From Shigella phage SHSML-52-1, in sequence record KX130865: a stretch of 64,000 nt of DNA. One strand, written 5' to 3'. Made by a program: the position numbers and the translations under genes. Shown in pieces: positions 2,704 to 33,669 of the stretch. Positions within the stretch are counted from its first letter, which is position 1. Every line of letters starts with the position of its first letter. The notes beneath the pieces are model-generated. The model saw nothing but the letters and a program-made list of their open reading frames with translations, was not told the origin of the DNA and searched no databases.

Positions 2704-5415
2704 ATGAAAGAATTTTACTTAACGGTTGAACAGATTGGTGATTCAATTTTTGAACGTTACATCGATTCTAATGGCCGTGAACGTACTCGAGAAGTAGAAT
2801 ATAAACCATCACTGTTTGCTCATTGTCCAGAAAGTCAGGCTACGAAATATTTCGATATCTACGGTAAGCCGTGTACTCGTAAGTTGTTCGCTAATATGCG
2901 TGATGCTTCCCAATGGATTAAACGTATGGAAGATATCGGACTTGAAGCACTTGGCATGGACGATTTCAAATTGGCGTATTTGTCTGACACTTATAACTAT
3001 GAAATCAAATACGACCATACAAAAATTCGTGTGGCTAACTTCGACATCGAAGTAACATCTCCGGACGGGTTCCCTGAGCCGTCACAAGCAAAACATCCGA
3101 TTGATGCTATCACCCATTATGACTCAATTGACGACAGGTTCTACGTATTTGATCTATTGAATTCTCCATATGGTAATGTAGAAGAATGGTCTATCGAAAT
3201 TGCGGCTAAGCTTCAAGAACAAGGTGGTGATGAAGTTCCATCTGAAATTATCGATAAAATCATTTATATGCCGTTCGATAACGAAAAAGAATTGTTGATG
3301 GAATATCTCAACTTCTGGCAACAGAAAACTCCTGTCATTTTGACTGGATGGAACGTTGAGTCATTTGATATTCCATATGTGTATAACCGAATCAAGAATA
3401 TTTTTGGCGAATCTACTGCGAAACGTTTATCGCCACATCGTAAAACTCGTGTTAAAGTTATCGAAAACATGTATGGTTCTCGTGAAATCATTACATTGTT
3501 CGGTATATCTGTTCTTGATTACATTGACCTTTACAAAAAATTCTCTTTTACCAATCAACCGTCGTATTCTCTGGATTACATTTCAGAATTTGAATTGAAC
3601 GTTGGTAAACTGAAATATGACGGCCCTATTTCTAAGCTTCGTGAAAGCAATCACCAACGATATATTTCTTATAACATTATCGACGTGTATCGTGTATTGC
3701 AAATTGATGCTAAACGCCAGTTCATTAACTTGAGCTTGGACATGGGTTATTATGCTAAGATACAGATTCAATCTGTGTTTAGCCCAATTAAAACATGGGA
3801 TGCTATTATTTTTAATAGCCTTAAAGAGCAGAACAAGGTGATTCCGCAAGGTCGTTCTCACCCGGTTCAACCTTATCCTGGCGCTTTTGTTAAGGAACCT
3901 ATTCCAAATCGATACAAATATGTAATGAGTTTCGACCTTACATCTCTGTATCCAAGTATTATTCGCCAAGTGAATATTAGCCCGGAAACAATAGCAGGAA
4001 CGTTTAAAGTAGCTCCACTGCATGATTATATTAACGCAATCGCTGATCGTCCTTCAGATGTGTACAGTTGCTCTCCTAACGGCATGATGTATTATAAAGA
4101 CCGTGATGGTGTAGTTCCAACTGAAATCACTAAGGTCTTTAATCAGCGTAAAGAACATAAAGGTTACATGCTTGCAGCTCAACGTAATGGTGAAATAATT
4201 AAAGAGGCATTGCATAATCCTAATCTTTCTGTTGATGAACCATTAGATGTTGATTATCGTTTCGACTTCACTGATGAGATTAAAGAAAAGATTAAAAAGT
4301 TGTCTGCTAAATCTCTTAATGAAATGTTGTTTAGAGCTCAACGTACTGAAGTTGCAGGTATGACTGCACAAATTAACCGTAAATTGCTTATCAACTCACT
4401 TTATGGTGCACTTGGAAACGTTTGGTTCCGTTATTACGATTTGCGTAATGCAACTGCAATCACAACATTTGGTCAAATGGCTTTACAGTGGATTGAACGT
4501 AAAGTTAATGAATACCTGAATGAAGTTTGTGGTACAGAAGGCGAAGCTTTCGTTCTTTATGGTGATACAGACTCTATTTACGTATCTGCTGATAAAATTA
4601 TCGATAAGGTTGGTGAATCTAAATTCCGTGATACCAACCATTGGGTAGACTTCTTAGATAAGTTCGCTCGTGAACGTATGGAACCTGCTATTGATAGAGG
4701 TTTCCGTGAAATGTGTGAATACATGAACAATAAACAACACTTAATGTTCATGGACCGAGAAGCTATCGCTGGTCCTCCGCTCGGTTCTAAAGGTATTGGT
4801 GGATTCTGGACTGGTAAGAAACGTTATGCATTAAACGTGTGGGATATGGAAGGTACTCGTTACGCTGAGCCTAAACTCAAAATCATGGGTCTCGAAACAC
4901 AGAAATCTTCGACCCCTAAAGCAGTACAGAAAGCTCTTAAAGAATGTATTCGTCGTATGCTTCAAGAAGGTGAAGAATCATTACAAGAATATTTTAAAGA
5001 GTTTGAAAAAGAATTCCGTCAATTGAATTATATTAGCATCGCGTCGGTATCTTCTGCGAATAACATTGCTAAATATGACGTTGGTGGATTCCCTGGTCCT
5101 AAATGTCCGTTCCATATTCGTGGAATTCTGACGTATAACCGGGCTATCAAAGGTAATATTGATGCTCCACAAGTTGTAGAAGGTGAAAAAGTATATGTTC
5201 TGCCTTTACGTGAAGGAAACCCATTCGGTGATAAATGTATCGCATGGCCTTCTGGCACTGAAATCACAGATTTAATTAAAGACGACGTACTTCATTGGAT
5301 GGACTACACTGTTCTCCTTGAGAAGACATTTATTAAACCACTTGAAGGATTCACATCAGCAGCGAAACTCGATTACGAGAAGAAAGCATCTCTGTTCGAT
5401 ATGTTCGATTTTTGA
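2704..5415 (+). CDS. 43: family B DNA polymerase gp43
   Basis: 903 aa; exonuclease motifs (FDIEV, YNIIDV), polymerase motifs (SLYPSII, YGDTDS); N-terminus matches the RB69-type polymerase as recalled. Confidence 0.97.
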   Translation: MKEFYLTVEQIGDSIFERYIDSNGRERTREVEYKPSLFAHCPESQATKYFDIYGKPCTRKLFANMRDASQWIKRMEDIGLEALGMDDFKLAYLSDTYNYEIKYDHTKIRVANFDIEVTSPDGFPEPSQAKHPIDAITHYDSIDDRFYVFDLLNSPYGNVEEWSIEIAAKLQEQGGDEVPSEIIDKIIYMPFDNEKELLMEYLNFWQQKTPVILTGWNVESFDIPYVYNRIKNIFGESTAKRLSPHRKTRVKVIENMYGSREIITLFGISVLDYIDLYKKFSFTNQPSYSLDYISEFELNVGKLKYDGPISKLRESNHQRYISYNIIDVYRVLQIDAKRQFINLSLDMGYYAKIQIQSVFSPIKTWDAIIFNSLKEQNKVIPQGRSHPVQPYPGAFVKEPIPNRYKYVMSFDLTSLYPSIIRQVNISPETIAGTFKVAPLHDYINAIADRPSDVYSCSPNGMMYYKDRDGVVPTEITKVFNQRKEHKGYMLAAQRNGEIIKEALHNPNLSVDEPLDVDYRFDFTDEIKEKIKKLSAKSLNEMLFRAQRTEVAGMTAQINRKLLINSLYGALGNVWFRYYDLRNATAITTFGQMALQWIERKVNEYLNEVCGTEGEAFVLYGDTDSIYVSADKIIDKVGESKFRDTNHWVDFLDKFARERMEPAIDRGFREMCEYMNNKQHLMFMDREAIAGPPLGSKGIGGFWTGKKRYALNVWDMEGTRYAEPKLKIMGLETQKSSTPKAVQKALKECIRRMLQEGEESLQEYFKEFEKEFRQLNYISIASVSSANNIAKYDVGGFPGPKCPFHIRGILTYNRAIKGNIDAPQVVEGEKVYVLPLREGNPFGDKCIAWPSGTEITDLIKDDVLHWMDYTVLLEKTFIKPLEGFTSAAKLDYEKKASLFDMFDF

Positions 5416-5455
5416 TATAATGCCAAGAACGGTAAACTAATTAAATGAGAGAAAT

Positions 5456-6091
5456 ATGAAAACTACACCAATCACTATCGCTATTGACGCAATCGTAAAA
5501 CAAGCTTCATCTCTTGCCACTATGGCTAAAGTAATTAGTCAAAACCCTGCCCGATATAATGCTATTCTTGAAACTCTTCGTCGCCCTGGACTGAGTAATT
5601 ATGAAAGCCGAGTAATTATTACAGGTGTTGGTAAGAATGCTAATATTGCAACTAAAGCTTCTGAGACATTTGCTTCACTAGGTATTCCTAGCATGTATTT
5701 GAACACTGGGCATTATTCTCATGGTGACGCAGGATTTATTGCACCTAATGATGTATTAGTTCACATCAGTCGTTCCGGTAAGACTGAAGAAATGATAGGT
5801 GTTGCTAAACATCTTCGTATGATTCGTCCTCAGGTTAAACAGATTCTGTTACATTGTAACCCTGACATTCCACAAGAATACGAAGCTCTTTTTGATTATA
5901 CGTTCTGTACCGGTATCGCGGTAGAAGTTGACGAGAACTCTTTAGCTCCGACCATGTCTACTACATTGTTGTTAGCGCTTATCGATACGTTCGCTATCAA
6001 CCTTTCATCTGAACGTGGATTTACCTCTAATGATTTCCTTAAGTTCCATCCAGGCGGTGCACTAGGTGCCATGTTACGAGGCGAACAATGA
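5456..6091 (+). CDS. SIS-domain sugar-phosphate isomerase (arabinose-5-phosphate isomerase / KpsF-GutQ-like)
   Basis: 211 aa; SIS signatures VGKNANIA, SRSGKTEE and C-terminal FHPGGALG typical of KdsD/GutQ-type isomerases. Confidence 0.7.
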   Translation: MKTTPITIAIDAIVKQASSLATMAKVISQNPARYNAILETLRRPGLSNYESRVIITGVGKNANIATKASETFASLGIPSMYLNTGHYSHGDAGFIAPNDVLVHISRSGKTEEMIGVAKHLRMIRPQVKQILLHCNPDIPQEYEALFDYTFCTGIAVEVDENSLAPTMSTTLLLALIDTFAINLSSERGFTSNDFLKFHPGGALGAMLRGEQ

Positions 6092-6231
6092 AAGCAATAA
6101 CAATAGGACTTTTACTATTGATGCTTGCCATGACTATCTACTGGAGCTTAACGGCTCCAGTAATGATTCCAACACTTGTAATTGGATGGATTATGATTGG
6201 TCTACAGGCAAAGTATGAATGCTTTAACTAG
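6088..6231 (+). CDS. small hydrophobic protein (47 aa), translationally coupled to the SIS gene
   Basis: ATGA overlap with the SIS stop; two predicted TM segments; not in ORF track (below 60 aa). Confidence 0.25.
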   Translation: MKAITIGLLLLMLAMTIYWSLTAPVMIPTLVIGWIMIGLQAKYECFN

Positions 6232-6244
6232 AATAGTGTACAAT
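6218..6244 (+). promoter_or_regulatory. putative middle promoter (MotA-box AATGCTTTA 6218-6226, -10 TACAAT 6239-6244)
   Basis: Box to -10 spacing 12 bp, about 30 nt upstream of the 6273 ATG. Confidence 0.4.
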
Positions 6245-6272
6245 ACACCTACTTACCAATGAGGACTTCAAC

Positions 6273-7961
6273 ATGAAAAAAGCTGTTATTCTTGGTGCTG
6301 GATTAGCAACTCGTTTATATCCAATTACTCACCATATTCCTAAGGTGCTTGTTAACTATAAACAAGACACTATTCTGAGCAATTTGTATACAATTTATTC
6401 TGACCTTGGCGCAGATGAAATTATTGTAGTAGTTCATTCAAAATTTGCTGAAACTGTTCGAGCTTATTGTGAGCAAGAAGGGTTCAATGTGACTATTCGT
6501 ACAGTTGATGAAGCGTATGGTTCTGCTTATGCTCTTGCTAAATTACACAAAGATTTAGACGGCCATAACGTAATTGTTAACTGGTGTGATATTATTCCTG
6601 ATTTTGGTTCATGGTCTTGGAATGTTAACGCAATCTATGTTAAGGGTGATGAATGTCGATATAATTTCGATGGTGAAAATATCACTAACGTAGGTTCAAC
6701 TGGTGGTAATGTTGTAGGAATTTATCAGTTCAAAGACTGGGAATTCTATATGGGTTCTACTGATGAGGAAATTCATGAATACTGCAAAGGACGTGATTTC
6801 GTAGAATTCCTTTACAGCGGCGCATTCAATAAATCAGAGCTTATGAATATCATCGACCTTGGTGATATGCCTAAACTTGAAAAAGCTCATGAAGTTCGTG
6901 AACTTAATCGTAGTTTTAATGCAGTTGAAATTGGTGAAGAAACGGTAACAAAGATTGCTTTAACAGAACAGGGCGTTGCACTTCAAAAAGATGAAGTCAA
7001 TTGGTATAAGAAAGTTAAATCAGATTCAGTTCCACGGATTGTAAGTTATCATCCTGGCGGCCACTTTATTATGGAACGCATTAAAGGTAAGCCGGCATTT
7101 GAATATATTAAATCCAAATCAAGTCTTGCTCGTCCACAAATTGTTGATGCAATTTTAGATGCACTGAAATTCAGCACAGACACTTATTTTGTAAGTCCTG
7201 AAACTGTTCGCCGTGATTTCACTAAAGAGTTCTATACGAAAGTTATTGATCGTTGTGAAAGCATTCAGCCATTGATTGATTCATTTGGTAAAATCACACA
7301 CGTGAACTACACTAAGATTGGACGTCTGAAGCCAATGTTGAAACAAGCTTTAGAACATCTTATTCGTTATCATAACCGTTCTCAGGGACAGTACTCTGTT
7401 ATTCACGGCGACCCAAACTTCAGTAATACTATGATTACTGATAACGGCGAAGTCAAGTTTATCGACCCTCGTGGATATTTTGGTGAAACCAAGATTTACG
7501 GGCCAAAATTGTACGATGAAGCTAAAGTGCTTTATGCTGTTTCAGGTTATGATGAATTCAATGCTAATCCGACCTGGGGACAGTTTACTATTGATGAAAC
7601 AACTTGTAATGTGACTATTAACATCAATCCATTAGTTTACAAATATGGAAAGATGAGTTCGTTTAACGAGTATCATCATTTGGCTGTAGCAATTATCTGG
7701 ATTGCATTAGGTGGTTATTTCAAGAATAATCCACTTAAAGCGGTAGCCGCCTATTATAAAGGTATGGAACTTCTGACTAAGCAATTACGTAACATGGGCC
7801 GTGTACTTCAAGATGGCTCTATTAGTTATGACGTAGCAGAACCTGTAACGGCTACTCTGATTACAAAAAATCCTGGTAAATGGGTGCTAACTGATAAAGA
7901 AACTGGTGTTTCCTATCGTCCAATCGGCGGCGATATCACTCATCAATGGGAACGAATCTAA
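6273..7961 (+). CDS. bifunctional sugar-1-phosphate nucleotidyltransferase (N-terminal, RmlA-like) / APH-type kinase (C-terminal)
   Basis: 562 aa; N-terminus ILGAGLATRLYPIT resembles RmlA GGSGTRLYPLT; C-terminal HGDPNFSNTMI…FIDPRGYFG resembles the HGDxxxxN / D-x-x-G motifs of APH/choline-kinase-fold kinases. Confidence 0.7.
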   Translation: MKKAVILGAGLATRLYPITHHIPKVLVNYKQDTILSNLYTIYSDLGADEIIVVVHSKFAETVRAYCEQEGFNVTIRTVDEAYGSAYALAKLHKDLDGHNVIVNWCDIIPDFGSWSWNVNAIYVKGDECRYNFDGENITNVGSTGGNVVGIYQFKDWEFYMGSTDEEIHEYCKGRDFVEFLYSGAFNKSELMNIIDLGDMPKLEKAHEVRELNRSFNAVEIGEETVTKIALTEQGVALQKDEVNWYKKVKSDSVPRIVSYHPGGHFIMERIKGKPAFEYIKSKSSLARPQIVDAILDALKFSTDTYFVSPETVRRDFTKEFYTKVIDRCESIQPLIDSFGKITHVNYTKIGRLKPMLKQALEHLIRYHNRSQGQYSVIHGDPNFSNTMITDNGEVKFIDPRGYFGETKIYGPKLYDEAKVLYAVSGYDEFNANPTWGQFTIDETTCNVTININPLVYKYGKMSSFNEYHHLAVAIIWIALGGYFKNNPLKAVAAYYKGMELLTKQLRNMGRVLQDGSISYDVAEPVTATLITKNPGKWVLTDKETGVSYRPIGGDITHQWERI

Positions 7962-8347
7962 TGCACCGTGTAGAAAACATGCTTAATCTTTGTTTTGATG
8001 TCGATGATTGTATAACAGAGTGGAATAACAATCGTGATTACGTGAACTTCAAACCAGATGTCGAAATGGTGTCTGCCATTAATGCCCTGTACGATGCAGG
8101 GCATACCATAACGCTTTACACTGCCCGTGGTATGAAGTCGGTAGGTCCTGGTCGTATAGCAATTGACATTCTCCCAAGTCTGATTCAGAACTTGGAAAAC
8201 ATTGGTTTGAAGTACCATAATTTGCTAACACATAAACCAGTATATGATTGGATTATCGACGACAAAGCTATGCGTCCTGACGAATTCAAAGCTCTTATGA
8301 ATAAAGGCGAATTCGAAACATTTAAATCATATAAACCAAATCTATAA
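7961..8347 (+). CDS. HAD-superfamily phosphatase-like protein
   Basis: N-terminal FDVDDCIT (DxDx[T/V] HAD motif I); track start 7946 but ATG 7961 abuts the upstream stop. Confidence 0.55.
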   Translation: MHRVENMLNLCFDVDDCITEWNNNRDYVNFKPDVEMVSAINALYDAGHTITLYTARGMKSVGPGRIAIDILPSLIQNLENIGLKYHNLLTHKPVYDWIIDDKAMRPDEFKALMNKGEFETFKSYKPNL

Positions 8348-8404
8348 TAATTTAAGTAAGACCTGCAAAAACCATCGCATCAATTAACGCGAGATGCAAA
8401 AAAA

Positions 8405-9565
8405 ATGAATACTTTTAAAATCGGAACGAATTTTGATTTAGCTCTTCTTGATAAAATCGTAGAGCTCAATAAAACCTATCCTAATAGCTTGATAAACGAA
8501 GTATATGGCTCTACAAGAGAAATGGCTTTTGTAGCAGCCAGACCTGATTTTAGGCTTCCTGACGTTGACAAAAAGATGTTAGAAGACTACGTTAAACGTT
8601 GTAACGAATTAGGTATTTGCTTTAACTATACACTCAACACGATAAATCCTGGTTCAAAAAGAGAACTAGTTGAGTGGAAGAAGAAAGCTATTCAGGATTA
8701 TGTTCAGTATCTTTGGTCAATAGGCGTATGGCGTATTACTATCGCTAACCCTGTTGTTATGGAAATTGTTCGTGAAGTCAATAAAGATATTGAGATTGAA
8801 GTTTCAACAATTCTACATGTTGATGCTGTAACTCAAATCAAATACTTACATGACCAATATAACATCAAAAAGGTCTGTTGCGGAATTCATAAGAACCGTT
8901 CAGTTTCTTTCCTGAAGCGTGCAGCAGAGTTTTGCAATAAGAACAATATAATATTTGAAGTTCTTGTAAATGAGTTCTGTTCTAATGCTGGTAAAGGGTA
9001 TACAACACATTGTAGTTATCGTGACTCTTGCTATATTTTCCATAGTACTGATGTTACCGCTGATGATGCTAAATCCTTAAATGGATATCCTATGCAGCAC
9101 TGTATTAAAGCTCGTGATACAGACCCATTTAACTGGTTGAGAACTCGTTTTGTTCGTCCTCAAGATTTGAAACTTTATAATGATATTGGTATCACTCAAT
9201 TCAAAGTTTCAGGACGTACAGGTAGCACAGACTACATTTTGAAAGTTCTTGAAGCATACGCTTCTGAAAAGTTTGAAGGTAATTTGTTAGAACTGTGGAA
9301 GCCTTTAGAGACTATTTTCACTCTTGAAAATGAGACTGAGTTTTCACATACAGTAAATATTGAAACCTCTTTGTTAGATGGCTTTTTAGAAAAAAGGTGG
9401 TTCAGACATCCAGATTTTGATTGTGCTAATGAAATCTGTGGGTCAACGTGTACATATTGTGAAAGGTATTATAAACGTCAATTATCTAAAAACGGGTTAG
9501 CAGAAAACTCCATATCTATTATTGATATAACTAACTCTGATGACGCTTTGAGGTACCCGGAATGA
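8405..9565 (+). CDS. hypothetical Cys-rich protein in the modification block
   Basis: 386 aa; Cys clusters (CSNAGKGYTTHCSYRDSC; CANEICGSTCTYC) suggest metal or Fe-S binding; U32-like fold considered but signature not matched. Confidence 0.6.
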   Translation: MNTFKIGTNFDLALLDKIVELNKTYPNSLINEVYGSTREMAFVAARPDFRLPDVDKKMLEDYVKRCNELGICFNYTLNTINPGSKRELVEWKKKAIQDYVQYLWSIGVWRITIANPVVMEIVREVNKDIEIEVSTILHVDAVTQIKYLHDQYNIKKVCCGIHKNRSVSFLKRAAEFCNKNNIIFEVLVNEFCSNAGKGYTTHCSYRDSCYIFHSTDVTADDAKSLNGYPMQHCIKARDTDPFNWLRTRFVRPQDLKLYNDIGITQFKVSGRTGSTDYILKVLEAYASEKFEGNLLELWKPLETIFTLENETEFSHTVNIETSLLDGFLEKRWFRHPDFDCANEICGSTCTYCERYYKRQLSKNGLAENSISIIDITNSDDALRYPE

Positions 9566-9801
9566 TTTCTAGAAAAAGTTTTAATTATAAACTTAACGAA
9601 GAGATTTTGACTATGAAACTGAACACTAACGAACAAATTCTTAAAAAGGCCCTTATGGGCCTGTTTGAAACCAAAGCGGCTAAAGTGATTAAAGAACCTG
9701 TTCAATTGGAATACTACACTGATGCATTCCTTCATAGTGTTCTTGGAAGTATAGATTCTGAAGCTTTACGTTATATCAACATTGTCAAGAAATTCAAATA
9801 A
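9562..9801 (+). CDS. hypothetical protein (79 aa)
   Basis: Track ORF overlapping the upstream stop; contains a terminator-like hairpin at 9648-9661, so coding status is uncertain. Confidence 0.3.
   Translation: MISRKSFNYKLNEEILTMKLNTNEQILKKALMGLFETKAAKVIKEPVQLEYYTDAFLHSVLGSIDSEALRYINIVKKFK
9648..9661 (+). terminator. hairpin GGCCC-TTAT-GGGCC followed by TGTTTG
   Basis: Perfect 5-bp GC stem inside ORF 9562-9801; possible attenuator after the modification-gene block. Confidence 0.3.
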
Positions 9802-9824
9802 GCTTTACGAATTGAGTATATAAT
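9800..9824 (+). promoter_or_regulatory. putative middle promoter for gene 42 (AAGCTTTA 9800-9807, -10 TATAAT 9819-9824)
   Basis: MotA-box-like element plus consensus -10 about 20 nt upstream of the 9844 ATG. Confidence 0.4.
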
Positions 9825-9843
9825 AAATTGTATTGAGGTAAAC

Positions 9844-10560
9844 ATGGGAAAACATAACACAATGAAATATATCAAAGCCGCAGATTTTCAAGCCGCATTT
9901 AAAGCAGTCAATCGTGAAATTTTAGAAAACCCTGAATTCGTAACTGATTCTCGTATTGGACGTTGTAATGAAATTGGGTCTATGACAGTAGTTGTTGACA
10001 CTCCATCATCATTCAAAATGACCGACCCACGTATTAACCGCATCTCTTATGAATACGCCGAAGACTTCTGGAAGTTTATGATTTCTGGTGGTACCAACGC
10101 AGAAGAAGCGTTTAAGGCATATCCTAATGTCGCTAAATTTATTTCTAAACCAAAATCAGATGTTTTGCCGGCGAACTTCAACACTTTCTATGGTCCTCGC
10201 ATTGCGGCCCAATTACCAACTCTTCTAAAAGAACTTAAAGAAAAACCTAACTCTCGAAGAGTTGTGTTCCAAATTCTAGAAAGTTCTGATCAGGCTTTGC
10301 TTGATTCGGACGAAACACTTGAATATCCATGTACTGACTCAGTGACTTATTATATTCGTGATGGTAAGCTTTATACCCACTGCCATATGCGTTCTCAGAA
10401 CTGTGCTGTTGTTATGCAGTTGGATTTTTATCTCCAAGGAAAATTACTTCATTATATCGCTAACGAATGCGGTGTAGAAGTTGGTGATTATACTCATACC
10501 ATGGTAAGTGCCCATGTGTTTGAACGTGATTTTGATTATGTTAAAGGATTCCTTGACTAA
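9844..10560 (+). CDS. 42: dCMP hydroxymethylase gp42 (thymidylate-synthase fold)
   Basis: 238 aa; PNSRRVVF and CTDSVTYYIRDGKLYTHCHMRSQN match the TS/dCMP-HMase active-site region (catalytic Cys). Confidence 0.85.
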   Translation: MGKHNTMKYIKAADFQAAFKAVNREILENPEFVTDSRIGRCNEIGSMTVVVDTPSSFKMTDPRINRISYEYAEDFWKFMISGGTNAEEAFKAYPNVAKFISKPKSDVLPANFNTFYGPRIAAQLPTLLKELKEKPNSRRVVFQILESSDQALLDSDETLEYPCTDSVTYYIRDGKLYTHCHMRSQNCAVVMQLDFYLQGKLLHYIANECGVEVGDYTHTMVSAHVFERDFDYVKGFLD

Positions 10561-11459
10561 TGGCTATTTTCCGCGTACCAATCTTGAGTATGCGGTCTTA
10601 TGAAACTGGACAGTATGCTATCCTTAAGGATGGCAACTTCCAACTTCATTTGCACCGTGCTAATCCAGGTGATGTGATTACATATCCACGTAATGCATCT
10701 GATATTAAAGAATGTGAACGTCTTTTCCCGGAATTTAAGTTTGTTCCATTATGGTATAAAGATAACGCGTATAACACTCGTAAATATTTCTGGTCTGAAA
10801 ATGAATTTGTGGTTGATTCATTAATTGCTTATTATGATTGTGATTTTCTAATAACAGATATCACTGGATATGACGGCGCTTTTGATGTAGAATTCAATTT
10901 CAATATCACGGCAGACCCTAATAAACCACGTTTTTATATTGACGAATTCTTAAAAACCGATATGTTGTCAGTTAATCGTTCACTTCAAACTACTGTGTTG
11001 AATGAACGTCAAAAGGAAGTGCTGGTTAAAGCCGGTGCAGATGGTAATAAGATTATCGTAACGCAGAAAGTTATACGTCCTTCCATCATGCAGCGTCTTG
11101 TAGGTGATTTGACTCCTATTCATGTAGATGGTATTTTTCATCCATTTCGAATTAGTGATCCGTGTTATCATTTTGAACAAGTGGTTGAATGTGCAATTCA
11201 ATTAGGTCAACCACTTTATATAACCGATCCAAATAATAGCTTCGACAGAAATAAGTATCCTGAAGAAGCGCTGATTCGAATTTTTAAACCAACTAAAACT
11301 GAGTACTATCAAATTCTTAAAGGACGCCCGAAGATTCAATATTTCGAAAATCCTGAAGAAGTATTCCATCCAGGTCTTGGTGAGTTCATCTACTTTAATG
11401 CTTTAATTTCTTCGCCGTATAATATACCTAAATACGAAGATGTCGTAATCGAGGAATAA
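10560..11459 (+). CDS. hypothetical protein at the T4 beta-glucosyltransferase position; candidate hmC-DNA glycosyltransferase
   Basis: 299 aa, TAATG-coupled to gene 42; no family recognised by eye; function inferred from synteny only. Confidence 0.45.
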   Translation: MAIFRVPILSMRSYETGQYAILKDGNFQLHLHRANPGDVITYPRNASDIKECERLFPEFKFVPLWYKDNAYNTRKYFWSENEFVVDSLIAYYDCDFLITDITGYDGAFDVEFNFNITADPNKPRFYIDEFLKTDMLSVNRSLQTTVLNERQKEVLVKAGADGNKIIVTQKVIRPSIMQRLVGDLTPIHVDGIFHPFRISDPCYHFEQVVECAIQLGQPLYITDPNNSFDRNKYPEEALIRIFKPTKTEYYQILKGRPKIQYFENPEEVFHPGLGEFIYFNALISSPYNIPKYEDVVIEE

Positions 11460-11460
11460 A

Positions 11461-12009
11461 ATGGCTAAAATTATTTTAGTAGATGGCCCGGATAATGCCG
11501 GTAAAACAACTTTCATTAATGACATAATGGAAATTAGTGAAAGATATGTAAAGATTGATTTCCCTAAACGAACAGTTGATGGACGTTTCGATGTTAAGTC
11601 TCGAAATGAAGTTGGTTGTTTCGAAACGATGTTGAATTATTTAGACCCTACTAAGATTTATCTGTTAGACCGTGGATATATTAGTAACTGGGTTTATGGA
11701 CGTATTCGACAAGATGCGGACTCTGTTCTTGATGTTTATGAGCAGGATTATGTTCGTCTTTGTCAAAACCATGATGTGTTCACAATTATTTTAACACGTA
11801 ACGAAATGACTGAAAGTTTTGAAGACGACCTTATTACTTTGTCTTCATTCGGTTTTAATACAGTCATTTCACATTTTGAAGAGTTTGCAATTCATAACAA
11901 AATCCAAACATATCAATTACTTAATCATGATGGTGCTAACAAAGTTATAGGATTTAATGCAAGCGAACGTAATAATTTGATTACAGAAATCATTAAATGG
12001 GCTCGTTAA
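11461..12009 (+). CDS. P-loop kinase (thymidylate/deoxynucleoside-kinase-like)
   Basis: 182 aa; Walker A VDGPDNAGKTT and LLDRGY motif resembling the TMK/dNK DRx motif. Confidence 0.55.
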   Translation: MAKIILVDGPDNAGKTTFINDIMEISERYVKIDFPKRTVDGRFDVKSRNEVGCFETMLNYLDPTKIYLLDRGYISNWVYGRIRQDADSVLDVYEQDYVRLCQNHDVFTIILTRNEMTESFEDDLITLSSFGFNTVISHFEEFAIHNKIQTYQLLNHDGANKVIGFNASERNNLITEIIKWAR

Positions 12010-12107: not shown

Positions 12108-13280
12108 ATGTCTGATTTAAAATCTCGTCTGATTAAAGCTTCTACTTCTAAAATGACTGCAGACTTGACTAAGTCTAAGCTGTTTAATAATCGCGATGAA
12201 GTCCCTACTCGTATTCCGATGTTGAATATTGCATTAGGTGGTGCACTGAATGCCGGGTTGCAATCAGGCTTAACTATTTTTGCTGCTCCTTCTAAACACT
12301 TTAAAACGTTGTTTGGGCTGACCATGGTTGCAGCATATATGAAGAAATATAAAGATGCAATCTGTTTGTTTTATGACTCAGAATTCGGTGCTTCAGAATC
12401 TTATTTTCGTTCAATGGGTGTTGATTTAGACCGTGTAGTTCATACTCCGATTCAATCTGTCGAACAACTTAAAGTTGATATGACTAATCAGCTTGACGCG
12501 ATTGAACGCGGTGATAAAGTTATTATCTTTATCGATTCAATCGGTAATACTGCATCTAAGAAAGAAACCGAAGATGCGTTGAACGAGAAAGTTGTAGGTG
12601 ATATGTCTCGTGCTAAGGCACTTAAATCTCTGTTCCGCATTGTGACTCCTTATCTGACTATTAAAGATATTCCATGTGTTGCAATCAACCATACAGCAAT
12701 GGAAATCGGCGGACTATATCCTAAAGAGATTATGGGTGGTGGTACAGGTATTCTTTATTCTGCCAACACGGTATTTTTTATCTCTAAACGTCAGGTTAAA
12801 GAAGGTACAGAATTGACCGGTTATGACTTCACGTTGAAAGCGGAAAAATCTCGTACAGTTAAAGAGAAATCTACTTTCCCGATCACGGTTAATTTTGATG
12901 GCGGTATTGACCCATTCAGTGGCTTGTTAGAAATGGCAACTGAAATTGGTTTTGTAGTTAAGCCTAAAGCCGGGTGGTATGCTCGTGAATTCCTTGACGA
13001 AGAAACAGGCGAAATGATTCGTGAAGAGAAATCATGGCGTGCTAAAGCTACCGATTGTGTAGAATTCTGGGGACCTTTGTTTAAACATAAGCCTTTCCGA
13101 GATGCAATTGAAACTAAATATAAACTAGGTGCTATCTCTTCTATTAAAGAAGTTGATGACGCTGTTAACGACCTTATTAATTGCAAAGCAACAACTAAAG
13201 TTCCGGTTAAAGCTTCTGATGCTCCGTCTGCAGCAGATATAGAAAACGACCTTGACGAAATGGAAGATTTCGATGAATAA
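12108..13280 (+). CDS. uvsX: UvsX recombinase (RecA-like)
   Basis: 390 aa; N-terminus MSDLKSRLIKASTSK and overall sequence match T4 UvsX; acidic C-terminal tail. Confidence 0.95.
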   Translation: MSDLKSRLIKASTSKMTADLTKSKLFNNRDEVPTRIPMLNIALGGALNAGLQSGLTIFAAPSKHFKTLFGLTMVAAYMKKYKDAICLFYDSEFGASESYFRSMGVDLDRVVHTPIQSVEQLKVDMTNQLDAIERGDKVIIFIDSIGNTASKKETEDALNEKVVGDMSRAKALKSLFRIVTPYLTIKDIPCVAINHTAMEIGGLYPKEIMGGGTGILYSANTVFFISKRQVKEGTELTGYDFTLKAEKSRTVKEKSTFPITVNFDGGIDPFSGLLEMATEIGFVVKPKAGWYAREFLDEETGEMIREEKSWRAKATDCVEFWGPLFKHKPFRDAIETKYKLGAISSIKEVDDAVNDLINCKATTKVPVKASDAPSAADIENDLDEMEDFDE

Positions 13281-20037: not shown

Positions 20038-20559
20038 ATGGCACACTTTAACGAATGTTCACAACTTATTTCTGGTGTTGATAAAGCAGAAGAAGCTTAT
20101 TTTAATGCTCTGATTCACGAAGATAAAGACCCACTGCAGGTAATGCTTGATATGCAGAAATCTTTACAGGTTCGTCTGGCAAATGACAAGCCTGAACATA
20201 ACAAACATCCTGATGAATTGGCTACTGCTGGTGATGTTGTTGATTGGCTGCGTAATCAGAAAGATTATATTGATGATGAATTCCGTGAACTGCTGACTTC
20301 ACTTGGTGGTATGAGCAATGGTGAAAAAGCCGCTAGCTCTGTATGGAAGCCATGGAAAGCACAACATGCTGAATATCGAAATCGTCGTATCGATGAATTG
20401 TCTCCTGAAGACCAGCTTGAAATTAAATTTGAGATGATTGATATCCTCCACTTTGTTCTGAATATGTTCCAAGGTCTGGGTCTTTCTGCTGAAGAAATCT
20501 TTAAACTTTATTACCTGAAAAATGCTGAAAATTTCGCACGTCAAGACCGAGGTTATTAA
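20038..20559 (+). CDS. 56: dCTP pyrophosphatase gp56 (MazG-like)
   Basis: N-terminus MAHFNEC… and overall match to recalled T4 gp56; track ORF starts at upstream TTG 20023. Confidence 0.9.
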   Translation: MAHFNECSQLISGVDKAEEAYFNALIHEDKDPLQVMLDMQKSLQVRLANDKPEHNKHPDELATAGDVVDWLRNQKDYIDDEFRELLTSLGGMSNGEKAASSVWKPWKAQHAEYRNRRIDELSPEDQLEIKFEMIDILHFVLNMFQGLGLSAEEIFKLYYLKNAENFARQDRGY

Positions 20560-23434: not shown

Positions 23435-24043
23435 ATGTTTATGCCGTATAATGAATGTGAAATTGAGGAAATGGTTCGCCGTGCTCAATGCCCCGAATAT
23501 CAAGATGAATTGCAGTACGAAATTGATAGTCAATTCAACGATAATGAACAAAGCATCCTTTGGCAGTGTATGGAAAACAAGCCAGACTGTATTCAACAGG
23601 AGTTAAGTTCAATCGTTCGTAGAAATTGGACGTCTTCAGTTCCTGAGACAATGTATCGTGGAATCTCTAAGAAAACTATGGCCACACTCGATGATAAAAG
23701 CATTGGTAGTATTATTAAATTTGACAGAGTAATGAGCTTTAGTCCAGTGTTCGGTGTAGCACGTAACTTTGCTTCGTATAATTTTTACGGAACATTTAAT
23801 ATGTTCTGCATCAAAGATGCACCATTTGCTTTCAACTTCCGTGAACATATGCTTAACATGATTCTGGCTGCGCCATCTTGTGAGTTCAATGGAGCTTTCC
23901 CTGAAGCGACAAGACGGTCTAATGCTAGACTTATATCTGACGAATGCGAATTTATGCTCCCTATAGGGACTACACTACGTGTAGATTCTATTATTCAAGA
24001 TGGACGTTATACAATCTGGAATCTGTCTATTGTCAGTTACTGA
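23435..24043 (+). CDS. ADP-ribosyltransferase, ModA/ModB-like (paralog 2)
   Basis: 202 aa; shares N-terminal block (E.QSILW.C…VRRNWTSSVPETMYRGI) with paralog 1; SFSPVFG and ECEFM motifs. Confidence 0.55.
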   Translation: MFMPYNECEIEEMVRRAQCPEYQDELQYEIDSQFNDNEQSILWQCMENKPDCIQQELSSIVRRNWTSSVPETMYRGISKKTMATLDDKSIGSIIKFDRVMSFSPVFGVARNFASYNFYGTFNMFCIKDAPFAFNFREHMLNMILAAPSCEFNGAFPEATRRSNARLISDECEFMLPIGTTLRVDSIIQDGRYTIWNLSIVSY

Positions 24044-24117
24044 CTGAATTGGAATAACCGGATGGAACTCAGAACCATTATAACACATAAAAAATTAAAG
24101 CATTTTATGAAAAAAGA

Positions 24118-24158
24118 GTGTACACTACCTGAGGGCATGATATTATAGACCTATCAGC
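24118..24158 (+). promoter_or_regulatory. PeSL-type early promoter (-35 GTGTAC 24118-24123, -10 TATTAT 24141-24146, core TATAGACCTATCAGC)
   Basis: 17-bp spacer; conserved cassette core. Confidence 0.5.
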
Positions 24159-24196
24159 TAAATGACCTTAACGTCCGTAAGACAGAGGAAAATATT

Positions 24197-24943
24197 ATGT
24201 TATCAAATAATAAAATTAACAAAATCAATCGTCGTCTTGACCACACCAGAGCTTCTGCGAAGAGACGCTCTAAGGATTTTAACTTAGACTTTAATTACCT
24301 TAAAAACATTCTTGATCAAAAGGTCTGCGCTTACTCAGGTGAATCTTTCAATAACTCTGTTGAAGGTGAGAAATTATCCTTAGAACGTTTTAATAACGAT
24401 ATCGGCTACATTAAAGGTAATGTTATCCCAGTTAAGAAAAAATATAACACGGCTCGTTCTGATTTAACATTAGAAGAACTTATTGAGAAACGTGATGCCA
24501 TTGCAAGACGTATCGCTAATCCTTCTGTCCGTAAAGTAGAGAAACTTAATCTCGACGAGAAGAAATGGGCCCAAATTAAAAAGGTTTATGGTACTATTTT
24601 AAAAATCCGAGCAAAACGTGAAAATCGTGTTAAGCATATGGCTAACATGATGAAAAATCAACCTTTATCTAACGAATCTAAACTTAGAATTGTTGCTTTG
24701 AAAGCACGCATTAATGGCTCACATCAAGCAGAAGGCCATGAACTTACTAAACTCAACGTTCTTCTTAAAGGCTCTGACTGGAAAACTAAAACTAAATTAA
24801 CTGATGCTGAATCGCTTTTCGATACATATGATAAAGTTATCCAAGGTCTGCGACGTTTTGAAAAGATTGGTTTCATTGGTAAATTAAAATTGAAACGTGG
24901 CTTACCACTTAGCGCATCATTATTCCAACTGATTAAAGGTTAA
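24197..24943 (+). CDS. basic protein at the srd position (Srd-like, tentative)
   Basis: 248 aa, Lys/Arg-rich; assignment by size and synteny (modA/modB - srd - dda) only. Confidence 0.4.
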   Translation: MLSNNKINKINRRLDHTRASAKRRSKDFNLDFNYLKNILDQKVCAYSGESFNNSVEGEKLSLERFNNDIGYIKGNVIPVKKKYNTARSDLTLEELIEKRDAIARRIANPSVRKVEKLNLDEKKWAQIKKVYGTILKIRAKRENRVKHMANMMKNQPLSNESKLRIVALKARINGSHQAEGHELTKLNVLLKGSDWKTKTKLTDAESLFDTYDKVIQGLRRFEKIGFIGKLKLKRGLPLSASLFQLIKG

Positions 24944-24945
24944 TT

Positions 24946-25257
24946 ATGGTTTATGTATATGCAATAGTTTATCGAGATATGGAAGGATTTACTGTCCCGG
25001 TTCCACTTGATGAGCATCGTCCTGCAGTATTTTTTAGAAAGGATATTGCAGATAAAGTTTTCGATACTTTGAAAACACAGTATAAAACAGATTTAAAAAT
25101 GGGAGTTCTAAGAATGGTCGAAACTCCGCGTAAGTTCTGGTTTAATAAGCTTGAAATGAAACACATTAAACTAGATGCGGAGACGCAAAGATTGTATCAA
25201 CGAATTCTAGATACTGGCCGTATTGTTAGTATTCCAATTGCAGGGACTTTACGATGA
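24946..25257 (+). CDS. hypothetical protein (103 aa)
   Basis: Track ORF, tightly packed between the srd-like gene and dda. Confidence 0.5.
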   Translation: MVYVYAIVYRDMEGFTVPVPLDEHRPAVFFRKDIADKVFDTLKTQYKTDLKMGVLRMVETPRKFWFNKLEMKHIKLDAETQRLYQRILDTGRIVSIPIAGTLR

Positions 25258-26567
25258 CATTTGATGATTTGACTGAAGGCCAGAAAAACGCCTTCAACGT
25301 TGTTATGAAAGCTATTAAAGAAAAGAAACATCACGTAACTATTAACGGGCCTGCTGGTACAGGTAAAACAACCCTTACTAGATTCATCGTTGAAGCTCTT
25401 ATTTCTGCCGGAGAATCAGGTATTATTTTAGCAGCCCCTACACATGCTGCTAAAAAGGTTCTAAGCAAACTTGCCGGTCAAGAAGCATCGACTATTCATA
25501 GCATTCTTAAAATCAACCCAACTACATACGAAGAAAACGTATTGTTTGAACAGAAAAAGGTTCCCGACTTAGCCTTGTGTCGTGTACTGTTATTTGATGA
25601 AGCGTCAATGTGCGACCGTTCTCTGTTTAAAATAATGTTAGCTAGTATCCCTAAATGGTGCACAGTAATTGGAATTGGTGACCGATGCCAGATTCGACCG
25701 GTAGACCCAGGCGAATCAACTGCGTATCTAAGTCCTTTCTTCACTCACAAAGACTTCGTGCAATGCGACCTTACAGAAGTTAAACGTAGCAATGCGCCAA
25801 TTATTGATGTTGCGACTGATATTCGTAATGGCAAATGGATTTATGATAAAGTAGTTGATGGGCATGGTGTTCATGGATATACAGACCTTAAATCGTATAT
25901 GATGAATTATTTTAATGTCGTTAAAACTCCTGAAGACCTTTTCGAAAATCGAATGATGGCATTCACAAATAAGTCGGTGGACAAGTTGAATTCAATTATT
26001 CGCCGAAAACTTTTTGAAACAGAAAAGCCATTTATTAAAGACGAAGTCATTGTTCTACAAGAGCCACTTACTAAGACATATAAGCTAGATGGCAAAAATA
26101 TGACCGAAATGCTTTTCAATAACGGGCAATTCGTTCGTATTCGAGACGCTGTAGAAACGTCTACATTCGTTAAAGCACGCGGTGTTTCAGGCGAATATAT
26201 GATACGATACTGGAATCTTACAGTAGAAACATATGGGGATGATGAAGAATACATCCGCGAAGATATAAAGGTTATTTCTTCCGAAGAAGAGCTTTATAAA
26301 TTCAATTTGTTTTTGGCTAAGACCGCAGAAACATACAAATTTTGGAATAAAGGTGGTAAAGCTCCATGGAGCGAATTCTGGGATGCTAAACGTATGTTCA
26401 CTAAGGTGAAGGCACTACCAGTATCAACCTTCCATAAGGCCCAGGGTATGTCTGTTGACACGGCCTTTGTTTATACACCGTGTATCCATTATGCCGATTC
26501 AGAATTAGCTAAACAGTTATTATATGTCGGCACAACTCGTGGTCGTTTTGACGTCCATTTTATTTGA
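25254..26567 (+). CDS. dda: Dda DNA helicase (SF1)
   Basis: 437 aa; N-terminus MTFDDLTEGQKNAFN…GPAGTGKTT matches recalled T4 Dda. Confidence 0.95.
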   Translation: MTFDDLTEGQKNAFNVVMKAIKEKKHHVTINGPAGTGKTTLTRFIVEALISAGESGIILAAPTHAAKKVLSKLAGQEASTIHSILKINPTTYEENVLFEQKKVPDLALCRVLLFDEASMCDRSLFKIMLASIPKWCTVIGIGDRCQIRPVDPGESTAYLSPFFTHKDFVQCDLTEVKRSNAPIIDVATDIRNGKWIYDKVVDGHGVHGYTDLKSYMMNYFNVVKTPEDLFENRMMAFTNKSVDKLNSIIRRKLFETEKPFIKDEVIVLQEPLTKTYKLDGKNMTEMLFNNGQFVRIRDAVETSTFVKARGVSGEYMIRYWNLTVETYGDDEEYIREDIKVISSEEELYKFNLFLAKTAETYKFWNKGGKAPWSEFWDAKRMFTKVKALPVSTFHKAQGMSVDTAFVYTPCIHYADSELAKQLLYVGTTRGRFDVHFI

Positions 26568-26576
26568 GAGAAAATT

Positions 26577-27254
26577 ATGAGCACTGATGTTATTATAGAT
26601 TTTGAAACATTCGGCAATACATCAAAAGCGGCTGTTATTGACCTTGCGGTTATTGCATATAATTCCGACCCTGAAGTTGTTGAATCATTTGAAGAACTTG
26701 TTCAACGAGGTAAGCGAATTAAATTTAATTTAGCTTCTCAGAAAGGGAAGCGAGTTTTCGCTAAATCCACTATGAAATGGTGGAAAGAACAATCGGCTGA
26801 AGCACGTAAAAACTTGGCCCCGTCTGAAGACGATGTCACTACGCTTGAAGGCATTAAAATCTTTTTAGATTATTGTCGAGCTAATAAAGTTGACCAATGG
26901 AAATCACAGATGTGGTGCCGTGGTATGAGCTTTGACTTCCCGATATTGGTCGATTTGATTCGTGACCTCTATCGTGATGAAGGTGTTCTTGAACCAGATA
27001 TTGATACTGATAAATTAGAACCGGTTAAATTCTGGGCTCAACGTGATATTCGTACGGCAATCGAAGCTTACTCGTTGACACGAGGATTAAGTATGTGTCC
27101 ATTACCGATGGGTACGCTAAAAGGATTCGTTGCCCATGATAGTATTCATGATTGTGCTAAAGATATTTTGATGTTAAAATATGCTCAGCGTTATGCGCTT
27201 GGCCTTGAAGATGTCCCTGAGAATCCTGACCCGTTAAGTGTAAAACAGCGATAA
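26577..27254 (+). CDS. dexA: exonuclease A (DexA, DEDD 3'-5' exonuclease)
   Basis: 225 aa; N-terminal DFETFG exo motif; position after dda. Confidence 0.8.
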   Translation: MSTDVIIDFETFGNTSKAAVIDLAVIAYNSDPEVVESFEELVQRGKRIKFNLASQKGKRVFAKSTMKWWKEQSAEARKNLAPSEDDVTTLEGIKIFLDYCRANKVDQWKSQMWCRGMSFDFPILVDLIRDLYRDEGVLEPDIDTDKLEPVKFWAQRDIRTAIEAYSLTRGLSMCPLPMGTLKGFVAHDSIHDCAKDILMLKYAQRYALGLEDVPENPDPLSVKQR

Positions 27255-27258
27255 ACCA

Positions 27259-27288: not shown

Positions 27289-27318
27289 CTTTCTATCTTA
27301 ACTAAACAGGAAAACATT

Positions 27319-27813: not shown

Positions 27814-27815
27814 TG

Positions 27816-32568: not shown

Positions 32569-33669
32569 ATGAAAGTTATGTTTATCCCATCTCGCGCAGT
32601 CCCATTTAACCCAGAACGTGTACAAGGTGGTCTTGAAGCAGTACATTTAAATGTGTTGAAATATTTAGTTTCTATCGGTGCTGATATTGATTATATCGGC
32701 TTTGATAATGACACATTTGGTGATTGGAAGGTTAATCATCATCCTGTTGGTCATCTGACTAAATTCAGTCTAGGTATGAGTTATACTATGGCTCGTAAGA
32801 TTGTTGAACTAGCCGGCATCCATGAATACGATTTTGTTGTTACTATGGAACCGACTAAACTAACCGTTCAGGCAATTAAAGACGCAGGTCTCTCTAAAGT
32901 TCATAAGAATTTTATGGCAACACCATTTGAACCGGTATCTCGTGGCATTGTTCAAATTTGGGACCAGACTATTCAAATTCATAAGAATGGTGGTAAGAGC
33001 TATGCTCCTACTAAAGCCTTCCGTGAATTTGAACGTAAATATTGTTATATGACTTCAGGTCTGACTGACAAAATTGATTATGATTATTGGCGAGCAAATC
33101 CGTTGTTTGAAGCCGAAGATTATCCGGTTATTTGTTTGAATGAGAAACCTGAAGTTCTTCCGGCGACTGATCTGATTATTAGTGCACAACGTTATGACAC
33201 TAAAATGCGTCGTACTGATGTTGCTCTTGAAGCGATTAAAGCACTAGGCGAAAATGGTGTAGGATACTGTCCTAGTAAATGGGCACCACCGGCTAAGTAT
33301 CCTGTTATTATTGATGCTCCACACAGTGAAATCATGGAACGTCTTAAAACAGCTAAAGCACTTATCAATACGTGTCCTGACACGGGTACGGTAGAGAATA
33401 GTTCTATTGAAGCCATCTCTAAAGGTGTCCCTGTGATTCAGTTAGTTTTTAAGGATTATCCGCACGCGACATTCGAATATGACCCAGATACTGTGCGTGT
33501 AGAAATTGATTCCTCTACTCCTAAGAAAGAAGTAGTTGCGCTTTACACAAAAGCTGTATTAGAATTCACTGACACATACGAAGCTCGAGTTAAACGTGCT
33601 GAAGCAGTATGGAAGAAGTATAACCGAGATGCGGTTGTTGCGATGTGGGATAAAATCTTCACAGCGTAA
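32569..33669 (+). CDS. GT-B-fold glycosyltransferase (GT4-like); candidate hmC-DNA sugar transferase
   Basis: 366 aa; C-terminal TGTVENSSIEAISKGVPVIQ resembles the GT4 E-x7-E sugar-donor motif; sits between 39 and rIIA. Confidence 0.6.
   Translation: MKVMFIPSRAVPFNPERVQGGLEAVHLNVLKYLVSIGADIDYIGFDNDTFGDWKVNHHPVGHLTKFSLGMSYTMARKIVELAGIHEYDFVVTMEPTKLTVQAIKDAGLSKVHKNFMATPFEPVSRGIVQIWDQTIQIHKNGGKSYAPTKAFREFERKYCYMTSGLTDKIDYDYWRANPLFEAEDYPVICLNEKPEVLPATDLIISAQRYDTKMRRTDVALEAIKALGENGVGYCPSKWAPPAKYPVIIDAPHSEIMERLKTAKALINTCPDTGTVENSSIEAISKGVPVIQLVFKDYPHATFEYDPDTVRVEIDSSTPKKEVVALYTKAVLEFTDTYEARVKRAEAVWKKYNRDAVVAMWDKIFTA

Follow-up and report, generated by a model that had tools for sequence, protein, structure and literature searches.

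The window analysed here, a stretch of 64,000 nucleotides from Shigella phage SHSML-52-1 (sequence record KX130865), carries at positions 5456-12009 a gene set of the RB69 (Mosigvirus) type, which very probably serves to substitute arabinofuranosyl-O-5-hydroxycytosine for the cytosine of virion DNA. The virion chemistry has been measured in RB69 and NP. Mahler et al. 2025 (Cell Host Microbe) and He et al. 2026 (Nat Chem Biol) are reportedly publications on the same pathway. The pathway is already known from publications spanning 2018-2026, Thomas et al. 2018 and Lee et al. 2026 among them; the initial annotation of the window had held the enzyme-by-enzyme route to be not established, but an outline dates from 2018 and the details from 2025-2026. 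The window is thus a correctly located example of a published pathway, the base chemistry of which is now corrected. One member of the block, a Peptidase_U32 family protein (hereafter U32), is predicted with a probability of roughly 0.5 to be an iron-sulfur enzyme that depends on prephenate and, without needing O2, hydroxylates C5 of a cytosine deoxynucleotide (or of cytosine in DNA).

The block comprises eight tightly packed open reading frames (ORFs) on the + strand, flanked by gp43 (2704-5415) and uvsX (12108-13280). All were found exactly where the initial annotation had placed them, with the addition of a 79-aa ORF (9562-9801) not listed there. The gene order of T4 at the same slot (43, imm.1, imm, 42, b-gt, segA, uvsX) bears out the synteny that had been proposed, and the view that a sugar-nucleotide and DNA-hypermodification module replaces the T4 imm/42/beta-gt block is supported. 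The genes of the block, and two further genes of the pathway encoded elsewhere in the window, are:

5456..6091, + strand: arabinose-5-phosphate isomerase (211 aa), homolog of RB69 gp55, with an SIS domain only and without CBS domains
6273..7961, + strand: bifunctional AfhE-like enzyme (562 aa), RB69 gp52:53, with an N-terminal nucleotidyltransferase and a C-terminal APH-fold kinase
7946..8347, + strand: small HAD-type phosphatase, AfhF-like (133 aa), RB69 gp51 (the RB69 gp51 start corresponds to 7961)
8405..9565, + strand: Peptidase-U32 family protein (386 aa), RB69 gp50 (Peptidase_U32 42.2 bits, cut-off 22.4)
9562..9801, + strand: 79-aa protein, RB69 gp49, with a 4-nt overlap between its start and the U32 stop
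9844..10560, + strand: predicted 5-hydroxy-dCMP synthase of the thymidylate synthase (TS) superfamily (238 aa), RB69 gp48 (Thymidylat_synt 57 bits)
10560..11459, + strand: GT-B fold glycosyltransferase (GT1; 299 aa), RB69 gp46:47
11461..12009, + strand: thymidylate-kinase-like P-loop kinase (182 aa), RB69 gp45 (PHROG 761)
20038..20559, + strand: gp56-type dCTPase homolog (Pfam dUTPase_2 28.8 bits)
32569..33669, + strand: second GT-B glycosyltransferase, homolog of RB69 ORF003c/gp3, located between gp39 and rIIA, 20 kb off the cluster

The block shares 96.0% nucleotide identity with RB69 24047-30598, and its proteins are 96-99% identical to RB69 gp45-gp55, gp49 excepted (88.6%). The same block was found at 95-99% identity in 150 phage records, the majority of them from Mosigviruses of Escherichia and Shigella, and the arrangement is therefore not due to chance. 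Judged by this similarity, the source phage is an RB69-like Mosigvirus, which makes the literature on RB69, HY126 and NP directly applicable. In the RB69 reference (NC_004928; L055), gp46/gp47 and gp52/gp53 are split (at 4598-5498 and 8095-9781 of L055), and their window counterparts are single intact ORFs of 299 and 562 aa. This agrees with the statement that the RB69 splits are sequencing errors (Lee et al. 2026, PMC13326640).

The TS homolog shares 98.3% sequence identity with RB69 gp48 and approximately 97% identity over 238 aa with the proteins in PDB entries 9IQC, 9IR2 and 9IQU (E 3e-160). An alignment with E. coli ThyA and T4 gp42 revealed L143E, D169N and N177D (ThyA numbering), with the motif letters MRSQN...QLD in the window protein, MRSND...RND in T4 gp42 and QRSCD...PFN in ThyA. 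T4 gp42 keeps D169, whereas the window protein has N169 and thus lacks the aspartate retained in a T4-type hydroxymethylase. E143, N169 and D177 are also present in the TS homologs of Acinetobacter, Shewanella and Dhakavirus phages (DLP1, Thanatos and VR5). RB69 gp48 converts dCMP to 5-hydroxy-dCMP, incorporating 18O from 18O2 and binding flavin, and the RB69 DNA nucleoside has been revised to 5-hydroxy-2'-deoxycytidine bearing beta-D-Araf-(1-3)-alpha-D-Araf through an ether bond (Lee et al. 2026, PMC13326640). Mono- and di-arabinosyl dC have been found in the DNA of the Mosigvirus NP (PMC13390438). The window TS homolog is accordingly classified, by its residues and close relatives, as a predicted O2/flavin-dependent 5-hydroxy-dCMP synthase and not a dCMP hydroxymethylase. 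The initial annotation, which had named it a dCMP hydroxymethylase and taken 5-hydroxymethylcytosine (hmC) as the acceptor, has to be corrected to 5-hydroxycytosine.

The sugar-nucleotide branch is encoded together in the cluster as an isomerase, a fused kinase/nucleotidyltransferase and an HAD phosphatase, and the formation of a nucleoside diphosphate (NDP)-arabinose from ribulose-5-P by these enzymes, as initially suggested, is supported. The isomerase (96.7% identity to RB69 gp55) matched Pfam SIS with 39 bits, NCBIfam KpsF/GutQ and KdsD with 110.7 and 105 bits in the SIS half only, and PHROG 5670, "arabinose 5-phosphate isomerase", with an E-value of 2e-116. The 562-aa protein (96-98% identity to RB69 gp53+gp52) matched NTP_transferase with 38.9 bits over residues 3-99, along with NCBIfam sugar-1-P nucleotidylyltransferase models, and showed weak kinase-fold matches at residues 238-410 (APH 17.2 and Fructosamin_kin 16.9 bits, both under the Pfam cut-offs); by sequence, its only PDB relatives were distant nucleotidyltransferases (1jyk, E 1.9e-5). 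The 133-aa phosphatase (98.4% identity to RB69 gp51) gave no match in the Pfam search but was recognized by NCBIfam TIGR01689, a capsule biosynthesis phosphatase model (50.5 bits), by HAD-IIIA (14.6 bits) and by PHROG 1238. Of the four domains initially named, SIS, NTP_transferase and HAD were thus recovered, and the kinase half yielded only sub-threshold kinase-fold matches. Thomas et al. 2018 had already suggested this block as the UDP-arabinose route (PMC6024577). As far as the work of He et al. 2026 is summarized in PMC13326640, AfhE of HY126 acts twice, first as a kinase on C1 of arabinose-5-P and later in the uridylylation of arabinose-1-P, with AfhF removing the 5-phosphate between both AfhE steps, so that the order is Ara5P, Ara-1,5-P2 (kinase), Ara1P (phosphatase) and UDP-Araf. 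The initially proposed order, in which dephosphorylation precedes anomeric phosphorylation, is at odds with this summary, where the kinase acts first.

Two GT-B enzymes are encoded in the window, one inside the cluster and one near rIIA as is the case in Mosigvirus. The 299-aa protein, initially left unassigned, found no family match in sequence-level searches and was assigned as a glycosyltransferase through its GT-B fold. Based on fold and synteny, we propose it to be the first arabinosyltransferase, acting on 5-hydroxycytosine, and the 32569-33669 product, which matches PDB 9IQZ/9IR0 (E 8e-250), to be the second; its RB69 homolog ORF003c was suggested as the arabinose transferase by Thomas et al. 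2018 (PMC6024577). No orthologs of the T4 a-gt or b-gt were found in the window at the sequence level, and the earlier statement to this effect is correct as such but misleading given these two GT-B transferases. The 182-aa P-loop protein (98.9% identity to RB69 gp45) matched PHROG 761 "thymidylate kinase" (E 2e-45) and, weakly, a dTMP kinase P-loop; it is probably the kinase for the modified nucleotide. A dCTPase is included in the RB69 pathway (PMC13326640 Table 1), and as the gp56-type enzyme excludes unmodified dCTP, the phage depends on a supply of 5-hydroxy-dCMP.

Taken together, the TS homolog would hydroxylate dCMP at C5 using O2 and flavin, the phage deoxynucleoside monophosphate kinase and host kinases would yield 5-hydroxy-dCTP for incorporation by the polymerase, and the gp56-type dCTPase would clear dCTP. 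In parallel, the SIS isomerase would convert ribulose-5-P to arabinose-5-P, to which the kinase half of the fused enzyme would add an anomeric phosphate, giving arabinose-1,5-bisphosphate; the HAD phosphatase would then take off the 5-phosphate and the nucleotidyltransferase half would produce UDP-arabinofuranose. The first arabinose would be transferred by the GT-B enzyme of the cluster and the second by that near rIIA. The TS, kinase and UDP-arabinofuranose steps are taken from near-identical proteins characterized elsewhere.

Two other explanations of the block as a whole were weighed. In the one put forward initially, the module yields arabinosyl-hmC (ara-hmC), with a dCMP hydroxymethylase providing the base, and the isomerase, an HAD phosphatase releasing free arabinose, the kinase and the nucleotidyltransferase acting in this order. 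The Thymidylat_synt match, the label "deoxycytidylate 5-hydroxymethyltransferase" in many GenBank records and the report of arabinose in RB69 DNA as ara-hmC (Thomas et al. 2018, PMC6024577) speak for such a product. It is nevertheless highly improbable, as the RB69 nucleoside is now a C5 ether of 5-hydroxycytosine and gp48 incorporates 18O2 (PMC13326640), the ara-hmC assignment has been termed erroneous (PMC13390438), and the D169N substitution, lacking in T4 gp42, is found in a protein with about 97% identity to the HY126 enzyme (PDB 9IQC); the phosphorylation of arabinose-5-P before dephosphorylation in HY126, as cited from He et al. 2026 in PMC13326640, also disagrees with it. A role in host-envelope or capsule sugars, with the block as a set of Kdo- or capsule-type auxiliary metabolic genes unrelated to DNA, is even less credible. 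The isomerase does resemble KdsD/GutQ and the phosphatase capsule biosynthesis phosphatases, and the PHROG class of both is "moron, auxiliary metabolic gene", but these genes lie exactly at the T4 42/beta-gt locus, intermingled with those for DNA glycosyltransferases, a nucleotide kinase and the TS homolog, and the arabinosylated base is present in RB69 and NP virion DNA (PMC13326640, PMC13390438). The virion DNA chemistry of HY126 contradicts this explanation as well.

The 386-aa protein, of which the initial annotation had recorded the cysteine richness, belongs to a family whose characterized members are RlhA (ho5C2501 in 23S rRNA), TrhP (ho5U34 in tRNA) and UbiU/UbiV (anaerobic ubiquinone synthesis). 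These act in O2-independent hydroxylation with prephenate as the oxygen donor, RlhA and TrhP at pyrimidine C5, and O2-dependent counterparts giving the same product exist, namely TrhO for TrhP and UbiI/H/F for UbiU/V (PMC10990095, PMC6599085, PMC5727448). In the phage U32 subfamily ten cysteines are invariant. C192 and C209 align with UbiU C169 and C176, and C233 adjoins UbiU C232; the fourth UbiU ligand is unaligned, C203 being nonetheless invariant in the subfamily. A C-x4-C-x3-C-x2-C motif at residues 340-352 (window 9422-9460; CANEICGSTCTYC) is likewise subfamily-invariant and is not found in UbiU, UbiV, RlhA or TrhP. The spacing of the last three of these cysteines, CX3CX(aromatic)C, is one typical of radical-SAM clusters, and AlphaFold confidence near the motif is low (pLDDT <50 for residues 341-348). 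No PDB relatives of the protein were found by sequence. The gene goes unmentioned in the 2018 RB69 paper and the Durham paper, the homolog TH1_065 is merely among the ORFs modelled in the Thanatos paper, and Table 1 of PMC13326640 labels gp50 a "sugar or heterocycle reductase", with no further discussion of the gene. In the literature covered, which does not include He et al. 2026 and Mahler et al. 2025, no connection was found between phage 5-hydroxycytosine and U32, chorismate mutase or prephenate.

Among the cluster proteins, U32 is the best conserved across T4-like genera, at 82-89% identity; the TS homolog reaches 74-82% and GT1 51-72%. It was found in 220 phage records, none of them from Acinetobacter phages, while GT1 was found in 57 Acinetobacter records. 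The hosts of the U32-bearing phages are all facultative anaerobes, whereas the Acinetobacter phages, whose hosts are strict aerobes, lack U32. Clusters without U32 occur in Acinetobacter phages (DLP3/DLP1), Pseudomonas phage PspYZU05 and the E. coli Dhakavirus VR5, all of which still carry the complete sugar branch. DLP3 DNA contains tri-arabinofuranosyl-5-hydroxycytosine (PMC13326640), and the number of sugars does not follow U32, Thanatos being mono-arabinosylated with it and DLP3 tri-arabinosylated without it. A full sugar branch and tri-arabinosylation in the absence of U32 imply that the sugar chemistry has no need of this protein.

A chorismate mutase scoring above the Pfam CM_2 threshold (34.7-44.6 bits, cut-off 27) is encoded after U32 in several T4-like genera. 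In Enterobacter Entb_45, Serratia LC53 and Shewanella Thanatos-1 there is a 4-nt overlap of the mutase gene with the U32 stop, the genera with this overlap being Kanagawavirus and Winklervirus, plus Thanatos; in Yersinia TG1 (Tegunavirus) and Serratia 92A1 the mutase gene comes after U32 and an intervening orf79-like gene. The pair has been relocated together to the far end of the cluster in Thanatos-1. A tblastn search found the phage chorismate mutase in 51 phage records, exclusively from U32-bearing genera. Simple ORF calling missed short overlapping genes such as the chorismate mutases of L018, L024 and L027, and the counts derived from it are lower bounds. In two metagenomic phage contigs, L030 and L058, the gene next after U32 encodes a DAHP synthase; the L030 enzyme reached 221 bits when scored as DAHP synthase and 67 bits when scored as KDO8P synthase.

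The U32 subfamily was also found, at 45-56% identity, in 27 non-T4-like loci, for which neighbours were counted by six-frame searches of ±10 kb flanks. A GT1 homolog lies close to U32 in 17 of these, often overlapping it (hhalign probability 99.8%), and AfhE-like, dCTPase-like and thymidylate-kinase-like genes stand beside it in nine, six and six loci, respectively. A D169N-type TS was present in none of the 27 flanking regions and a canonical ThyA in one. No chorismate mutase was found near U32 in the non-T4-like contigs, either by BLAST or with an HMM built from the phage chorismate mutases. In L056 the gene order is primase, dUTPase_2, thymidylate-kinase-like, GT1-like, U32, Pol III-alpha, which amounts to a condensed counterpart of the T4 base-replacement kit with U32 in the place of gp42.

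In the hydroxylase model, U32 fed by prephenate would hydroxylate the substrate of the TS homolog without O2 and thereby act as a backup in the anaerobic enteric host. The prephenate would come from the phage chorismate mutase in several genera and from host PheA and TyrA in Mosigviruses. The sole known 5-hydroxycytosine route of these phages requires O2, their hosts live largely without it and dCTP is destroyed, so that an anoxic infection would be left without a cytosine-type nucleotide for DNA. In the uncultivated phages with Pol III-alpha, U32 could be the only hydroxylase, acting in a four-gene base-replacement kit of a dCTPase-like enzyme, U32, a thymidylate-kinase-like kinase and a GT1-family glycosyltransferase.

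Several observations weigh against this model. The window itself has no chorismate mutase beside U32, and of the four canonical Fe-S cysteines no more than two or three can be aligned cleanly with UbiU. The VR5 cluster shows U32 to be dispensable for the modification in aerobic culture, leaving the correlation with host aerobiosis one-sided; the Acinetobacter phages moreover represent few independent lineages, and phage lineages are generally not independent samples. A TS-type hydroxylase may be encoded beyond the ±10 kb flanks in the metagenomic phage genomes. Direct in vitro hydroxylase activity has been demonstrated for no U32 protein (PMC10990095), and He et al. 2026 and Mahler et al. 2025, which lie outside the literature covered, may assign gp50 otherwise.

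The chief rival is an unspecified accessory or reductase role, U32 being a sugar or heterocycle reductase, another accessory of the sugar branch or a protease, and the chorismate mutase an unrelated metabolic takeover. The published reductase label of gp50 (PMC13326640 Table 1) and the protease label in GenBank favour a role of this kind, as do the position of the gene between the phosphatase and the TS homolog, beside sugar genes, the AfhE-like genes near U32 in nine of the 27 non-T4-like loci, and the predicted fold, a generic TIM barrel common to many sugar-phosphate enzymes. We consider it doubtful, though a serious contender, as the U32-less DLP3/DLP1, Dhakavirus and PspYZU05 retain the whole sugar branch, the number of arabinoses is independent of U32 (Thanatos vs DLP3), and reductase activity has been demonstrated for no U32 member. 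The coupling to chorismate mutase and DAHP synthase, on the other hand, fits the single known cofactor of the U32 family, in line with a prephenate-dependent hydroxylase.

The metagenomic loci showed further features. In L030 (8296-10130) and L058 (10001-11891), the DAHP synthase is of type I-beta and lies amid NDP-sugar epimerase, uracil-DNA glycosylase (UDG) and AfhE/SIS/GT1-like genes, and a shikimate-pathway entry enzyme in such a phage nucleotide/sugar island is unusual. Uncultivated phages of approximately 40-50 kb with Pol III-alpha replicases (L032 8171-14883, L056 8232-13792, L036, L039, L040 and L050) share a module of dUTPase_2-like, thymidylate-kinase-like, GT1-like and U32 genes, sometimes with a GT47-like gene, followed by the polymerase. 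No TS homolog was found near this module, which gives the impression of a cytosine (or uracil) hypermodification system not described so far. Two jumbo-phage-like contigs, L002 (7447-9086) and L057 (8279-9858), encode U32 after a dCMP deaminase, with a 4-nt overlap in L002, surrounded by Pol III-alpha, UDG and thymidylate-kinase genes and with GT1 not in view; here U32 could act on a uracil nucleotide instead of a cytosine one. Finally, an apparently bacterial ENA scaffold carrying a dockerin-bearing GH43 (L003 5135-15428) encodes a U32 homolog with 48% identity. The island around it also includes another, distant U32 and a radical-SAM/SPASM protein, together with a PnuC-like transporter and three nucleoside or nucleotide enzymes (NT5C deoxyribonucleotidase, deoxynucleoside kinase and nucleoside 2-deoxyribosyltransferase), which suggests a cellular modified-deoxynucleoside pathway.

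The 79-aa gene following U32 sits where other genera carry the chorismate mutase. It is the fastest-evolving gene of the block (88.6% identity to RB69 gp49, compared to 96-99% for its neighbours), and its family has a conserved YY-DAF-HS-G motif and zero cysteines. In Yersinia TG1, Serratia 92A1 and Pectobacterium PM2 a homolog separates U32 from the chorismate mutase, and the protein may be a U32 accessory. A diverged chorismate mutase was considered and rejected, since no Pfam match was obtained (E<=10), hhalign against five phage chorismate mutases gave a probability of 0.9%, and both genes coexist in TG1 and 92A1.

One more short ORF is found in the block, and a canonical TS is encoded elsewhere in the window:

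6088..6231, + strand: very hydrophobic 47-aa ORF with two likely membrane spans, overlapping the isomerase stop, in the RB69 gp54 region
59720-60580: canonical thymidylate synthase (td)

The 47-aa ORF (translation MKAITIGLLLLMLAMTIYWSLTAPVMIPTLVIGWIMIGLQAKYECFN) is a CDS in the p000v annotation, and the LC53 ORF in the same place is labelled "transmembrane segment(s)". RB69 gp54 matches window 6121-6228 at 97%, the RB69 reference annotating a 36-aa piece of the ORF as "similar to T4 42-imm intercistronic region"; the ORF may represent what is left of the Imm membrane protein, or an analogue of it. Scanning the block for promoters and terminators revealed no enrichment compared to shuffled sequences and was thus uninformative. 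Outside the block, a ModA/Alt-like ADP-ribosylase fragment family was noted at 23435-24043, an Srd-like or HNH-like protein at 24197-24943 and a DenB-like endonuclease IV at 37347-37967.

If the hydroxylase model is correct, an O2-independent U32 hydroxylase would account for the modification in the gut, and prephenate-based U32 hydroxylation would reach DNA precursors, beyond RNA and quinones. It would also constitute a second, TS-independent entry to glycosylated-cytosine DNA in many uncultivated phages, and would provide the soluble small-molecule substrate for in vitro U32 assays that is still wanting in the field (PMC10990095). There would further be a bearing on phage therapy, where Mosigvirus-type and U32-less Dhakavirus-type phages could differ at anoxic infection sites.

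Among known systems, the closest is that of RB69 gp45-gp55 and gp3 and the corresponding HY126 Afh genes, with the same genes, order and locus at 96-99% protein identity, a common TS hydroxylase signature and both GT-B transferases, the proteins in PDB 9IQC and 9IQZ being near-identical to those of the window. There is no material difference from RB69; the window ORFs are intact where the reference splits them, and gp49 is the most diverged (88.6%). The glucosyl-hmC system of T4 (gp42, gp1 kinase, gp56 and the alpha- and beta-glucosyltransferases) follows the same strategy from the same genomic slot, in that dCMP modification by a TS-superfamily enzyme is combined with destruction of dCTP and, after incorporation of the modified nucleotide, GT-B enzymes glycosylate the DNA. 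The C5 chemistry in T4 is however a folate-dependent hydroxymethylation, in contrast to hydroxylation by O2 and flavin in the window type, and the T4 sugar is drawn from host UDP-glucose, whereas the arabinofuranose is phage-made.

The sugar branch resembles the ADP-heptose route, in which GmhA, HldE and GmhB provide an SIS isomerase, an anomeric kinase giving a bisphosphate, an HAD phosphatase acting on the distal phosphate, and a nucleotidyltransferase. The order of reaction types is identical, and kinase and transferase are likewise fused. The window enzymes differ in using a pentose, UTP and an APH-fold kinase, with the product going to DNA, while the ADP-heptose enzymes use a heptose, ATP and a ribokinase fold and serve lipopolysaccharide. 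The phage U32 has the U32 domain in common with RlhA, TrhP and UbiU/V, with conserved cysteines in the Fe-S motif region, and the pyrimidine C5 chemistry of RlhA and TrhP fits the need of the pathway, the phage gene being genomically coupled to prephenate supply. It differs from the E. coli U32 proteins in sharing only approximately 19% identity with them and in the additional invariant C-terminal CX4CX3CX2C motif, and its substrate would be a deoxynucleotide (or DNA), compared to RNA or quinone for the U32 proteins known to date.

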